A DNA stretch of 64,000 bases from Candidatus Latescibacterota bacterium (GTDB lineage: Bacteria > Latescibacterota > UBA2968), in the NCBI GenBank assembly GCA_965205975.1, contig OZ242195.1, positions 1,984,001 to 2,048,000 on the forward strand, given 5' to 3'. Positions 32,398 to 36,487 of this stretch are shown here, in pieces. Under the pieces are notes generated by a model. It saw nothing but the letters and a program-made list of their open reading frames with translations. It ran no database searches and was not told where the DNA came from. Positions within the stretch are counted from its first letter, which is position 1, and each line of letters starts with the position of its first letter. The translations under genes and the position numbers were made by a program.

Positions 32398-32440
32398 AGC
32401 GGCAGGTTGCAGAAACCCACCGCTCTTAAGAAGTAAGAAG
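32398..32440. repeat. 43-bp direct repeat copy 2; terminator downstream of the mini-RNAP gene
   Basis: Identical to 31447-31489, preceded by an A-tract (U-tract on the minus strand). Confidence 0.9.
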
Positions 32441-32530
32441 TGAAAAGTGAGAAGAGAGAAATCCACTCAATACCTCCCCAAGGCGGATGCTTCTTCACCT
32501 TCACACTTCTACCTTCACACTTCACACTTC
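32428..32530. repeat. Inverted sets of degenerate heptamer repeats (AAGAAGT/GAAAAGT versus TCACACT)
   Basis: aagaagt aagaagt gaaaagt gagaag...tcacact tctacct tcacact tcacact; the last units overlap the stop codon of the RNAP-like gene. Confidence 0.6.
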
Positions 32531-35500
32531 CATCGGTAACCCTACAAATAACCGGCTATACTCATCCGTCAATGGATCGCGCTCGCCCTTTTGCGCCGCT
32601 CGGGCAAATACCACACCAGGTGTATCCGACCTGCGCGCCCGCGCAAAAACGCCATACCCACCTGGCGCACTCTGCGTTTCCAGATCGCTTTGAATTGCTA
32701 TCATCTCTGCCAGCGCATTGGCCAAACCCCAGCGTGCACCAATCGCCCGCGCAAAAAGCTCCTCTGGCGTCAGCCCCTCTCGAAAACCATGCTTCAGAGG
32801 CGTAAACCTACCCTGATCATTCCGCGTCACGCCCTGGGGAGCCACATAAAGTCTAACCTGTTGCCAATTGGCACGCGCACCGCATTCCACCAGAAGCGCG
32901 GGAATCCCGAGATCATCGTCGTCATATCCGCGAAATCGCGCCAACACAGCCGACACCTCATCGGGATAATCGCGCCAGACATCTGGATCATCCCCCTCTG
33001 GCGGATCGGGCCAATCGAGCGACGAACCGATAAACGCACTCATCGAAGCCCCTGTCTTGCGCGCGGCATCAAACCCTCTATCCCACAATCGCGCAGCCAG
33101 ATCCAATGCAGCCTTCGCGCCATCGCGCGCCATTGCATCTGCCATCCAGCCCATCACCTGATACTTATCTACAAATACCCCCTTTCGCTCAACCTCATCG
33201 CCGACAATCTCCAAAATCTCCTGCAACCCCTCGTCCGTCATACTCATATACGCCAGGCCAAACAGCGCGTCGTGCATCGGGTGTACCTTCTCCCGCGCAA
33301 TCAGTCCCGGATCCCGAGTCAGGTGCGCCACCGCCGACAGATGTTCTTCAGCTGACCGCTGGCCTTCTTCGGTCACCGGCACAAAAATCGCCACCTGATC
33401 GCCATCAAAATCCATATCCATCATCTTGCAAATCGCCACACACACGCGCACTGCATCCCCCGCCACACGCACCGGATGACACGCCACAAAAGCCATTGGC
33501 GAAAACGCGGGTCTGCGAAGCACCACAACCCACAATTTAGCCATAGCTGCATCCAGAGCTTCCTCTGCTTTTCTCGACCGCCTATCCACTTCTTTAGCCC
33601 CCACCTCTCTCGCTGCAAACGGCCCAAACAACGTCCACGCCATTTCTTCGGGCACACCGACCTGATCGTATCCCAATTCGGGTGCAGGCACAGCCACCGA
33701 ACGTCCGCTGAACAACGCACGCGCCTGAAATTGCAAACGCGACAACTCGCAAAATGCGCGAACTCGCCCAGACAGCGTATCAACCGCGCGATGCACCAGC
33801 ACATCTGGTGCGCCATTGGCAATCATCTCCTCCAATCGCTCATTGGCCTCTCGCAATGCTCCGGGCACATCTCTCCCACTCACATGTGTCAACGAATGCC
33901 CCGGTAGCCACGGATGCGGAACCGAACGCGCAAGCGCGACATCCCCACCGCCTTTCAACGAAAACTCTACGCCGCGTTCATCCAGTTCAACAGCCACCCC
34001 ACCCTTTGACAAATGCCCAATTAGCTCATCAAACTGAGGGGACGGCATAGCGGGAGCAACAGACCCCGCAACGACGCGGTCAGCCAGAGTATCGGCATCA
34101 TCTCGATCTACCGCGCACGTATTGAACAAATCGCCAATCACCCCAAAAGCACCCGCTTCTCGCAACGCCAAAAACTCTGTCTCGCCCAATCCCTGGCTTC
34201 GCTGATCTAATTTTACACTTACGGGAACGGCTTGGCGTAGATCCGCGGCGGTTTGACCCAACTCTCGATCTCGTTTCCCCGGCTTCACACCAGCCTGAAT
34301 TTTATCCGCCGCCAAATGCACCGTGCGTCCCCAATACACCCACCCTACAGTGGTGCGACGCGGTAGCGTTTCCCCATTCAGCGTCAGCGTCTCCAGGCCA
34401 TCTTCTGCCAGCCCTGAAGCCCTCAAACGACCGCGTATCTCATCATCTTTGGGCGCATTGAGCGCGGGAACAATAACCGGCTCTCCCTCGGCTTTTGCAA
34501 TGCGCCCTGCCACTGCTTCGCGCACCTGCCCAATATTCAACCGCGACGGCAAACCACACACACTCACAATAAGCTCCACAGGCGTGCGATCCGATAACCT
34601 CGGCATCTCTTCATCTCGTACGATGCGCGACACCACCCCCTTAAAACCGTGCCGATTGCTCAGTTTATCGCCCGGCGCAACGCGATTGGGCAACATCATC
34701 CGGTTCGCAGCCGACTCGCTGACCACAACTGCATCTTCGTGTGTATCACCATTCCACGCCATAAAGGCGGTCAGCAAATTGTACCCCGTCCAGAAATGCG
34801 GATCGCGCGGTTCACACCCCGTTTGCACCAGCGCGGGTTCCGACTCCAGTAACTTGCCGTCATATTGCGCGTGATACGCGTGCCACACGCCCTGCTCATC
34901 GCGCTGCATATCGGGACCCGGCGCGCCAATCCACTGCCGCATCATATTCACGCCCATCAAAACGCGATTGGTATCATTGTGTTCCAAAAACGGAACCACC
35001 GAAGCACCTATGCCCAGCCGCTTTTCAGGCGCATCGTCTTCAATCACCAGCTTGCCATCGCGAATAGTCGCCCCTTGAGCCACCTCTAAAATCCGCGCGA
35101 GATTCGGTCCCTCGGGCGTACAATAAGGACACACGCGCCCATCGTGCGAAGGATGATAGCAATTCTCTATCCCCTCATCGGCCTCACCGATAATTGGGAT
35201 CAACGTCACCCGCCGCAAATGAACGGACATATCCTGCAAATTGGTCGCCTGCAAATACTGCGATGTGGGTTCTTCTGTAAAAAATGCGTGAATCCAATTT
35301 CCCAACAGCAACCATGTTTCAACGGTATCTCCCAGCATATCGGGCATATTTTCCAACCGCTCGGCGATATAATCGCGCAGTTGCTCACCCACACATCGAA
35401 TTTCAGCACGCGCCAAATCCACATCAGTCGGCGCAGGAACCACCGTTCGAAAAAAGCCATCTACCTTAAACCGCCCCCATTCGTCGGGCTGAGGAATATT

Positions 35501-35680
35501 TTTGTACACAACCTCTTGCCCTCCCTGAATCGCGAGATGCAATTCACAGGTGTATTCATCCACCGACACCACCCGGTACCCCGCCAGCGACACCCGGTCT
35601 GCCAACAATTCGGGCAATCCCTTTTGCACAAACATATCCCACGAAATTTTATGCCACGGCGCCTTCACTGAAAGACTCAT
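32522..35680 (-). CDS. Miniaturised single-chain RNA polymerase beta-beta' (RpoB-RpoC) fusion-like protein, ~1052 aa
   Basis: Collinear RpoB motifs ([66 protein letters not shown]), then RpoC motifs (SGRSV, DFDGDQ, GAR, FREGL...GAR.GLA). ATG at 35680 follows GAGGAG. Confidence 0.85.
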
Positions 35681-35721
35681 CAAATTTCTCCTCTCTCTGT
35701 TAAAAGACACTTTTCAACTGT

Positions 35722-36315
35722 TTACCCTCTCCCATACCTCCGACCCCATGCCTCTGCGAGTTGCTTGCGCGCGTGGAACAGCCGCGATTTCACTGTCCCC
35801 TCTGGAATCGCCAGCCGTTCGGCAACTTCTCGAAGTGCCACCTCATCTTCGTACACCATCTGAAACACCTCGCGTTTTTCCTCCGGCAACGCATCGATCA
35901 ACGCCTGCAAAATGCGCCGTTGTTCAGCGCGTTCCAACTGCACATCGGGTCCCAACGCAGCCCGATCGATCATCCATCCCGGAACAGGTTGCTCTTCATC
36001 CTCCTCATCGTAAAGCGAAGGCATTTCCAGAGGCTGTTCGCGACGGCGACTTTGGCTTCGCAATTGATTCAGCGACAGATTTCTCGCAATCCGAAACAGC
36101 CACCCCCGAAAAGACCCTTGCTCAGACCATTGATCTGCCCGATTCCAAACCCTGAGAAAAACCTCCTGTGTCAAATCATCTGCAACACCCGGATCCCGCA
36201 TTATCCAACGCAGGCTCTCGGTCACCTGTGCCTGATAGCGCGCAAACAGAATCGCAAAAGCCTCTTGATCCCGCGCCACAATCCGCTGCATCAAAATCGC
36301 GTCCGATAATGTCAA
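35722..36315 (-). CDS. ECF-family RNA polymerase sigma factor
   Basis: Sigma2 ADDLTQEVFLRVW and FRGWLFRIARN; sigma4 LREVAERLAIPEGTVKSRLFHARKQL. TTG start at 36315 after AGGAGG. Confidence 0.92.
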   Translation of the reverse strand: MTLSDAILMQRIVARDQEAFAILFARYQAQVTESLRWIMRDPGVADDLTQEVFLRVWNRADQWSEQGSFRGWLFRIARNLSLNQLRSQSRRREQPLEMPSLYDEEDEEQPVPGWMIDRAALGPDVQLERAEQRRILQALIDALPEEKREVFQMVYEDEVALREVAERLAIPEGTVKSRLFHARKQLAEAWGRRYGRG

Positions 36316-36335
36316 AAAATATCCTCCTGTAAGAA

Positions 36336-36362
36336 TCGACACCGCCCAATGCTCAAAGGTTC
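36336..36362 (-). promoter_or_regulatory. Candidate ECF-sigma autoregulatory promoter
   Basis: Minus strand GAACCT-N16-GTCGA immediately before the RBS. Confidence 0.6.
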
Positions 36363-36377
36363 AAAAAAAGTGTGATC

Positions 36378-36407
36378 CGCAGATGAACGCAGATGAATGC
36401 AGATGAA
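36378..36407. repeat. Tandem decamer (C/T)GCAGATGAA x3
   Basis: cgcagatgaa cgcagatgaa tgcagatgaa. Confidence 0.8.
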
Positions 36408-36456
36408 AAAGGTGTGAAGGACCTGATCTCCGCCAGCGGTGCGTCCACCCAGATAT

Positions 36457-36487
36457 AAAAAAGCGCAGTCCTGTGAGACTGCGCTTC
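36457..36487 (-). terminator. Rho-independent terminator after the 36519 gene
   Basis: AAAAAAGCGCAGTC...GACTGCGCTT; U-tract on the minus strand. Confidence 0.75.

Follow-up and report, generated by a model that had tools for sequence, protein, structure and literature searches.

What does a bacterium that already encodes a complete RNA polymerase (RNAP) do with a second, much smaller one whose gene stands directly behind that of a sigma factor? The question is raised by a two-gene operon in the genome of a Candidatus Latescibacterota bacterium (GenBank assembly GCA_965205975.1), of which a stretch of 64,000 nucleotides (nt), hereafter the window, was analyzed (contig OZ242195.1, positions 1,984,001 to 2,048,000). 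The genome is a single contig of 5.56 Mb and also carries normal, separate rpoB and rpoC genes ~300 kb from the pair. On the minus strand of the window, a gene for an extracytoplasmic function (ECF) sigma factor comes first and a gene for a single-chain beta::beta' mini-polymerase second, both enclosed by two intrinsic terminators (Table 1). An initial annotation had left two options: either the two proteins form a dedicated holoenzyme, or the polymerase-derived protein fills the place of an anti-sigma factor and sequesters the sigma factor by mimicking the core. We found conservation of the pair, its gene order, its promoter and the catalytic residues of the polymerase in at least six phyla, with the two genes gained and lost as a unit. 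The reading we favor, with a probability of about one half, is that an autoregulated sigma factor both controls and programs a dedicated minimal single-chain polymerase.

Conservation of the gene pair and its promoter

One genome from each of 185,579 species was scanned for relatives, which produced 211 matching stretches; 194 of them encode a relative of the mini-polymerase, and the best 80 were kept as loci. Judged by their titles, these 80 loci come from Latescibacterota, Poribacteria, Gemmatimonadota, Planctomycetota, Chloroflexota and Hydrogenedentota, and one match to the mini-polymerase protein was labeled Armatimonadetes. Among the 120 best protein matches, 113 cover 98-99% of the query, with lengths of ~1000-1067 amino acids (aa), and the names that members carry in their sources are generic (“hypothetical protein” or bare lists of domains). 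In all loci but one (L051), a homologue of the sigma factor is encoded upstream of the polymerase gene and on the same strand (79/80). E-values of these linked sigma factors range from 1e-25 to 1e-129, compared to 1e-11 to 1e-14 for unrelated ECF sigma factors encoded in the same loci.

Spacing between the two genes was determined in the 80 loci with start codons set by the N-terminal motif of the family. The genes overlap by 4 nt in 27 loci and by 1 nt in three, giving overlapping stop and start codons in 30/80. Gaps of 0-50 nt were found in 13 loci, of 51-400 nt in 22, of 401-1000 nt in one and of more than 1 kb in 11, and three loci were left unscored (L051, which is without a sigma gene, and L060 and L066, in which the sigma gene is adjacent). 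In the window, 41 nt separate the sigma stop codon (TAA, 35722-35724) from the polymerase start, in agreement with the ~40 bp given at first. The gaps of more than 1 kb are filled by a gene for a 597-aa fused ABC exporter (ABC_membrane plus ABC_tran; 11/80 loci, for example 4177-5970 of L001), which is confined to close relatives and absent from the window. No third gene was conserved across phyla, and other neighbor families each occurred in at most 21 of the 80 loci.

Co-occurrence was then resolved within the phylum, represented by 168 genomes. The polymerase was present in 65 and a sigma orthologue (E <= 1e-40) in 63 of them; 62 genomes hold both genes, 102 hold neither, three hold the polymerase alone and one holds the sigma factor alone. 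The sigma-only case (G161) and one of the polymerase-only cases (G154) lie at contig ends. By clade, the polymerase was found in 20/20 genomes of the source organism's own genus and 24/30 of its own family, and in 0/13 or 3/22 genomes of some other families. With 65/168 genomes in the phylum and 194 stretches among the 185,579 species genomes, the family is no rarity in its lineages. Conservation of the gene neighborhood, a check suggested by the initial annotation, was thus borne out both by the linkage in 79/80 loci and by near-perfect co-occurrence in the phylum.

One genome of the same family (G076, 8.4 Mb) contains two diverged pairs (L196 and L197), each with its sigma gene beside its own polymerase gene. 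The two sigma factors are 52.5% identical and the two polymerases 38.5%, and a similar GAAC...GGTGTCCT motif lies ahead of both pairs, which makes G076 a natural test case for partner specificity.

The sequence GAACCT-N16-GTCGA, noted earlier ahead of the pair, is present (Table 1) and is conserved far beyond chance. Its strict form, GAAC-N14-NGGNGTC, occurred 87 times in the 80 loci against 8.5 expected (1.12 Mb, both strands). It stands ahead of the sigma gene in 75 of the 79 sigma-bearing loci, and four of the 80 loci have none. In 70/79 it falls in a 200-nt interval whose distance from the stop codon of the sigma gene is fixed. Across 67 tabulated instances the spacer varies, with C at position 19 in 65, G at position 18 in 57 and T at position 6 in 56; in 52 of the 67 the sigma start codon lies 19-24 nt past the -10 element. 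This is the layout of textbook ECF autoregulation, and the sigma factor would presumably use the promoter itself. Contigs from RNA libraries (four libraries from four studies; coral, sponge and one more source) cover relatives of both genes at 90-99% identity; they do not prove transcription, because strand, start and level are invisible in them and carry-over of DNA is possible.

Architecture of the mini-polymerase and the sigma factor

The open reading frame (ORF) of the mini-polymerase spans 32522-35710 on the minus strand. Its start was placed at the ATG at 35680, which sits behind its own GAGAGGAG, because 15/15 aligned relatives begin at that methionine. Pfam detected Rpb2_6 (3.1e-37), Rpb1_2 (1.7e-13) and Rpb2_3 (3.3e-4) in the one chain, and its best matches among solved structures were to bacterial beta (1.6e-42) and beta' (3.5e-24). 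An AlphaFold2 model built with 66 family members had a mean per-residue confidence score (pLDDT) of 91.1 and a predicted template modeling score (pTM) of 0.90, and its top Foldseek matches were bacterial and plastid beta and beta'. Residues 1-570 of the model superpose end to end on beta/Rpb2 chains (Z ~30, root-mean-square deviation 2.6-3.2 Å over 449-527 residues), for example on residues 20-1165 of 8i23_C. Scores against the NCBIfam rpoB and rpoC models were far under their cutoffs, and a full-length rpoBC fusion was ruled out (NF011417, 165.6 bits vs 4632; NF007172, 158.6 bits vs 5372).

To map what has been kept and what lost, the family profile was aligned to the normal beta and beta' of the same genome. 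Residues 135-161, 454-539, 611-781 (with a 68-residue gap inside) and 1036-1267 of beta are retained, and 162-453 and 782-1035, which we take from the E. coli enzyme to be the lobe and flap regions, are without counterpart. Residues 97-126 (weak), 268-524, 558-627 (weak) and 670-782 of beta' are retained. Missing from beta' are residues 1-96 (zinc-binding domain), 127-267 (lid region), ~25 residues near 310-335 (rudder) and, after 782, all but ~50 residues following the bridge helix. With no more than ~50 residues left after this helix, the chain has no trigger loop. No counterpart of beta' 783-1300 was aligned in the mini-polymerase; its last 50 residues are colinear with the end of beta' at a level that is not significant (E 0.24). 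Overall, the alignment indicates that the mini-polymerase is without lobe, flap, zinc domain, lid, rudder, trigger loop and jaw.

By the same kind of evidence, the two-barrel catalytic core is retained, with both barrels, the metal-binding aspartates and the bridge helix. Conservation was assessed in 66 members, whose identity to the protein of the window is 44-93%. In the beta-type barrel motif, G337, D338, R343, G345, K347 and G348 are invariant, and K339 and H344 are conserved at 90% or more. In MDMDFDGDQ (residues 754-762), G760 and D761 are invariant, with D757, F758 and D759 again at 90% or more; the same range (invariant or at least 90%) holds for LEHxDxNR..NMMRQ, the switch-2-like FSGR and the bridge helix. 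Within the protein, conservation is highest in the barrel regions (0.77-0.78, compared to 0.62 overall and 0.56 for the coiled-coil). The copy in L051 has GDR for GDK and PEGPH for PEGPN.

Also retained is the clamp coiled-coil, which we take to be the main docking site of sigma region 2, and a site for NusG, in cellular RNAPs. P625 in it is invariant, and N613, R615 and L628 are conserved at 90% or more in the 66 sequences. A 24-aa insertion private to this genome's polymerase (Table 1) is missing in 15/15 aligned relatives and is the sole stretch of the model with pLDDT <50; a relative's contig skips 34189-34296, a segment that spans it.

The sigma gene lies in an ORF of 206 aa (35722-36342, minus strand) with matches to Sigma70_r2 (7.5e-18, residues 32-100) and Sigma70_r4_2 (8e-15, residues 143-195), and Pfam detected no sigma domain in this ORF besides regions 2 and 4. 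We set the start at the TTG at 36315, since the 35 aligned orthologues begin there; the GTG start listed at 36342 falls within the -10 element. The protein scored 116.9 bits against the NCBIfam model TIGR02937 (sigma70-ECF; cutoff 42.9). Its predicted layout, regions 2 and 4 only in ~200 aa, is that of an ECF (group 4) sigma factor. Among the NCBIfam subfamily and equivalog models, the best 25 of 97 matched families were all under cutoff for the sigma factor, the highest being NF009166 (127.2 bits vs a cutoff of 206). An alignment of the protein with its 35 orthologues revealed an invariant region 2.2 core (D47, Q50, E51, F53 and W57) and an unusually conserved linker (P112, W114, D117 and P123 at 90% or more). 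The part of the main text covered here of a paper that reclassifies ECF sigma factors (PMC7826278) makes no mention of polymerase-subunit partners, Latescibacteria or Poribacteria.

What the sigma factor and the mini-polymerase may do together

In the reading we favor, the sigma factor would recognize the conserved GAACYT-N12-GCGGYGTC ahead of its own gene. Because this promoter has ordinary ECF geometry and the mini-polymerase is missing the flap, the first firing would probably fall to the normal core with the sigma factor, from which both the sigma factor and the mini-polymerase would be made. Region 2 of the sigma factor would dock on the retained clamp coiled-coil to form a two-protein holoenzyme, and this would synthesize RNA at a two-barrel active site that has no trigger loop, in the manner of the prophage polymerase YonO. 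YonO is described as a processive single-chain enzyme in which no homology to the trigger loop is detectable (PMC5467207). A further-reaching version, plausible and put forward tentatively, has the pair as a second, orthogonal machine of only two proteins, a 115-kDa single-chain beta::beta' core with a private ECF sigma factor, working without alpha, omega, flap, lobe and trigger loop. Such a machine may hold the sigma factor until a template is engaged and then release it, so that the activity of the polymerase would feed back on its own promoter.

Binding between the two proteins was assessed by complex prediction, as proposed in the initial annotation, using polymerase residues 250-1052 and the sigma factor with their own alignments. 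The complex score was 0.51 (runs of 0.55, 0.51 and 0.49) and the best of three controls reached 0.00; the partner had a pLDDT of 67 or more, and at least 27% of contacts were shared between the runs. The pass mark is reached by 116/157 solved complexes and 2/215 mismatched pairs, and at scores of 0.60 or less lie 18 of those 157 solved complexes together with both passing mismatches. The prediction thus gives weak support for binding of the sigma factor to the mini-core, and the score may reflect likeness only, because sigma/beta' complexes are solved. Indirectly, binding is also suggested by the retained coiled-coil, the joint retention and loss of the two genes, the overlap of stop and start codons and the conserved sigma linker.

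Several observations weigh against the favored reading, the weakness of the complex score among them. Retention of the coiled-coil does not prove sigma binding, since NusG also binds there. The flap docks and positions sigma region 4 for reading of the -35 element, so that a mini-holoenzyme without it may fail to read the -35/-10 promoter of its own operon. A scan for the promoter motif, likewise suggested at the outset, revealed no regulon outside the operon in six genomes. In the source genome (5.56 Mb), three strict matches were found against ~2.65 expected by our own estimate, and among the three only the operon's own copy looks real. Relaxed forms of the promoter stayed at chance in this genome (e.g., 9 found vs ~10.6 expected), and no spacer length from 0 to 44 nt was enriched. 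Five other genomes gave 8, 2, 7, 9 and 12 matches, compared to 4, 8, 1, 8 and 7 for a reversed-pattern control. Inside the 80 loci, ~11 extra matches were present vs 8.5 expected, recurring only among close kin. Moreover, two genomes, G148 (the source of L051) and G151, keep the polymerase with no sigma orthologue genome-wide; their best ECF matches reach 1.7e-24 and 3.5e-31, compared to 1e-72 or better for full-length orthologues, and the polymerase match of G151 begins only at profile position 94. These sigma-less polymerases could reflect decay or sigma-independent use. Finally, all hosts seen are uncultured genomes. The dedicated holoenzyme of the initial annotation therefore stands in part: the kept coiled-coil, the conserved active site and the overlap in 30/80 loci speak for it, and the weak complex score, the missing flap and the lack of any other promoter speak against it.

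Many of these same observations would fit a polymerase that is controlled by the sigma factor and works independently of it. The sigma factor, on the normal core, would switch the operon on, and the mini-polymerase would act alone, for example on single-stranded or nicked DNA or with RNA templates or primers, as YonO-type enzymes may. The ordinary ECF geometry of the promoter, the missing flap, the absence of promoter copies elsewhere in the six genomes and the two genomes that keep the polymerase without a sigma orthologue are all in line with this, and the part of the YonO report covered here leaves open whether that enzyme needs a promoter-recognition factor (PMC5467207). However, a sigma factor without the polymerase was found in just 1/63 genomes, at a contig end, and the overlapping stop and start codons in 30/80 loci are typical of partners made in a fixed ratio. 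The coiled-coil, too, has been retained with its conserved N613, R615, P625 and L628, and the complex score, weak as it is, stands at 0.51 against 0.00 for the controls. We consider this explanation unlikely, although it is the most serious rival to a sigma factor that programs the polymerase.

The second option of the initial annotation, an anti-sigma factor that mimics RNAP, would have the core-like surface of the protein keep the sigma factor from the normal core, with catalysis irrelevant. The gene does occupy the usual anti-sigma slot directly after the sigma gene, often with overlapping stop and start codons, and the coiled-coil for docking has been kept. A self-activating sigma factor needs a brake, and the absence of a conventional anti-sigma gene, as first annotated, agrees with our Pfam scan, which detected no anti-sigma domain in the four adjoining proteins. 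A non-catalytic mimic is nevertheless unlikely, because the active site is conserved: the catalytic aspartates, beta-barrel motif, FSGR and bridge helix are invariant or nearly so in the 66 members, down to 44% identity, and the barrels are more conserved than the coiled-coil (0.78 vs 0.56). A decoy of 1052 aa would also be a costly brake, and without another target promoter the circuit would have no output. A mimic acting only as an anti-sigma factor is thus disfavored and, in our view, improbable; the protein may still have a feedback role through capture of the sigma factor.

Still less probable is that the mini-polymerase serves as a decoy or spare target for agents that attack RNAP, such as antibiotics or phage inhibitors, maybe together with the ABC exporter of some relatives. 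Jaw, flap and lobe are common targets of phage inhibitors and all three are missing from the mini-enzyme, and the 597-aa exporter gene does lie between the sigma and polymerase genes in 11/80 loci. Yet this exporter is limited to close relatives and absent here, the PADLOC models contained no family for the polymerase and none for the sigma factor, and a spare polymerase would need many promoters, whereas one was seen.

Mobile elements were searched for members of the family as well. No record among 50,697 in a phage collection or 72,556 in a plasmid collection covers 80% or more of the mini-polymerase, and no fused member was found in these collections or in viral contigs. The latter contained 86 related stretches, 22-34% identical over short parts, and two higher-scoring contigs (L128 and L143) have separate beta-like and beta'-like genes; PHROGs offered only its generic beta and beta' families. 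A remnant of a phage or other mobile element, which the patchy distribution within the phylum and the reduced two-barrel polymerases that phages are reported to encode (PMC5467207 and PMC2919709, in the parts covered) might suggest, is very improbable given these searches, flanks made up of housekeeping genes that differ by lineage, intact reading frames and a single copy in nearly all 65 genomes.

Full-text literature searches, with subscription papers and author manuscripts outside their scope and an earlier mention therefore possible, returned no published account of a sigma-linked fused mini-polymerase. Bacteria are taught to have one RNAP core, common to all sigma factors. If the reading of a sigma factor with its own dedicated polymerase is true, a conserved chromosomal single-chain mini-core with its own sigma factor would break this one-core rule and, among polymerases of the cellular type that depend on a sigma factor, would be the smallest. 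It would define the parts needed for sigma-dependent initiation, with flap, lobe, lid, rudder and trigger loop gone and the clamp coiled-coil kept, and would offer synthetic biology a compact, possibly orthogonal two-gene transcription module. It would also bear on how multi-subunit polymerases arose from a two-barrel core, or how they can shrink back to one.

Operon surroundings and comparison with known systems

Coordinates of the operon and its features are collected in Table 1. That terminators flank the pair was correct in the initial annotation, with the bounds of both now adjusted. The upstream hairpin is the terminator of the preceding gene and insulates the operon; it is kept in close relatives, and in several of them its T-run abuts the -35 element.

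Table 1. Features of the sigma factor/mini-polymerase operon, with positions counted in the window
Feature	Position	Strand	Residues	Details
Upstream intrinsic terminator	36460-36487	(-)		12-bp stem and T-run; -19.7 kcal/mol; z -5.25; 0/200 shuffles equal it
Putative ECF-type promoter	36336-36362	(-)		-35 GAACCT 36357-36362; -10 GCGGTGTC 36338-36345; GTCGA 36336-36340
Ribosome-binding site of sigma gene, AGGAGG	36323-36328	(-)		7 nt ahead of TTG 36315; kept in aligned close relatives
ECF-type sigma factor, 197 aa	35722-36315	(-)		TTG start; Pfam regions 2 and 4; TIGR02937
Single-chain beta::beta' mini RNA polymerase, 1052 aa	32522-35680	(-)		Pfam, PDB matches, AlphaFold2 model, alignment to own subunits
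Beta-type barrel motif GDK..RHG.KG	34637-34672	(-)	337-348	Aligns to GDKMAGRHGNKG of own beta
Insertion, 24 aa	34202-34273	(-)	470-493	Private to this genome's polymerase
Clamp coiled-coil	33752-33862	(-)	607-643	Model helices 607-621 and 626-643, antiparallel; aligns to own beta' 268-310
Catalytic DFDGD, predicted Mg-binding aspartates	33398-33412	(-)	757-761	Aligns to NADFDGDQ of own beta'
Bridge helix	32672-32767	(-)	972-1003	Model helix; profile 875-978 aligns to own beta' 670-782
Operon-ending intrinsic terminator	32395-32427	(-)		14-bp stem and T8 tail; -19.8 kcal/mol; z -3.99

Short dispersed repeats are found in both flanks of the operon (36368-36408 and 32440-32521). The genome contains ~48-50 copies of 16-mers from the TTCATCTGCG unit and 48 of GAAGTGTGAAGT, and the contigs of 4/4 RNA-library runs break at 36368-36408; the repeats look like elements of the repetitive extragenic palindromic (REP) type and not like regulatory sites. 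The TTCATCTGC repeats ahead of the promoter were rejected as a binding site, being absent from most aligned close relatives and part of a dispersed repeat.

Beyond the upstream terminator, two overlapping genes on the minus strand (36519-38496) encode proteins of 346 and 316 aa. The former matches nothing but a DksA/TraR C4 zinc finger (1.7e-08), whose fold is also that of known factors that bind polymerase, and the latter is without a family. Both were considered as a third component and rejected, as they lie behind the terminator and were found in just 17/80 and 16/80 loci, respectively, all of close relatives. Directly downstream of the operon (31548-32258, minus strand), a PIN-domain protein (154 aa; PIN_3, 5.7e-21) and its 78-aa upstream partner look like a toxin-antitoxin pair, which is an insertion in this genome, since a relative's contig joins 31438 to 32391. 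Further downstream (28558-31352, minus strand), the gene for a BlaI-type repressor (128 aa) precedes that for an 802-aa BlaR1 peptidase M56 protein with four TonB C-terminal domains, which is an unusual sensor architecture. Elsewhere, a protein Atlas contains more clusters of single proteins with both Rpb2_6 and Rpb1_2 (~1200-1800 aa), and fused beta::beta' polymerases may thus be more diverse than the mini-polymerase family.

Among known systems, canonical ECF sigma/anti-sigma operons resemble the pair in their GAAC...GTC autoregulated promoter and in having the sigma gene first and its partner directly after. In those operons the partner is a protein with an anti-sigma domain; here it is a core that is predicted to be catalytically intact, and no wider regulon was found in the genomes scanned. 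The bacterial alpha2 beta beta' omega core is built of separate full-length subunits, in contrast to the single trimmed chain described here. Full-length rpoB-rpoC fusions (Helicobacter/Wolbachia; NF011417 and NF007172) do form one chain and are the best NCBIfam matches of the mini-polymerase. They are complete, ~2800-2900 aa long and the cell's only core, whereas the mini-polymerase has ~1050 aa and is encoded in addition to separate rpoB and rpoC.

Jumbo-phage non-virion RNAPs (phiKZ and AR9 type) are, in the sources as far as covered, likewise reduced enzymes of the beta/beta' type without alpha and omega. They use a promoter-specificity subunit of their own. Unlike the mini-polymerase, they are phage-encoded and consist of four to five separate polypeptides, and their specificity factor is no ordinary ECF sigma factor. 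By description only, the mini-polymerase can be set beside Orf6 of the yeast killer plasmid pGKL2, a 982-aa Rpb2::Rpb1 fusion with the same order, a similar size and about half of each subunit deleted; this fusion is treated together with NCgl1702 and YonO-like proteins in the covered part of PMC2919709. Orf6 differs in being eukaryotic, borne on a cytoplasmic plasmid, derived from Rpb2/Rpb1 and without a sigma factor.

YonO of the Bacillus prophage SPbeta is, like the mini-polymerase, one chain of ~100 kDa of the multi-subunit type, and the part of its report covered here presents it as an active DNA-dependent polymerase without trigger loop, flap, lid, rudder and lobe, and also without zipper (PMC5467207). 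No Bacillus phage was among the matches listed at E <= 1e-3 in the phage collection, in which the inclusion of SPbeta is unconfirmed. We know of no sigma partner for YonO, which is encoded by a prophage and bears only a very distant similarity to cellular enzymes. In contrast, the mini-polymerase is chromosomal, clearly akin to bacterial beta and beta' (1.6e-42 and 3.5e-24) and paired with an ECF sigma factor.

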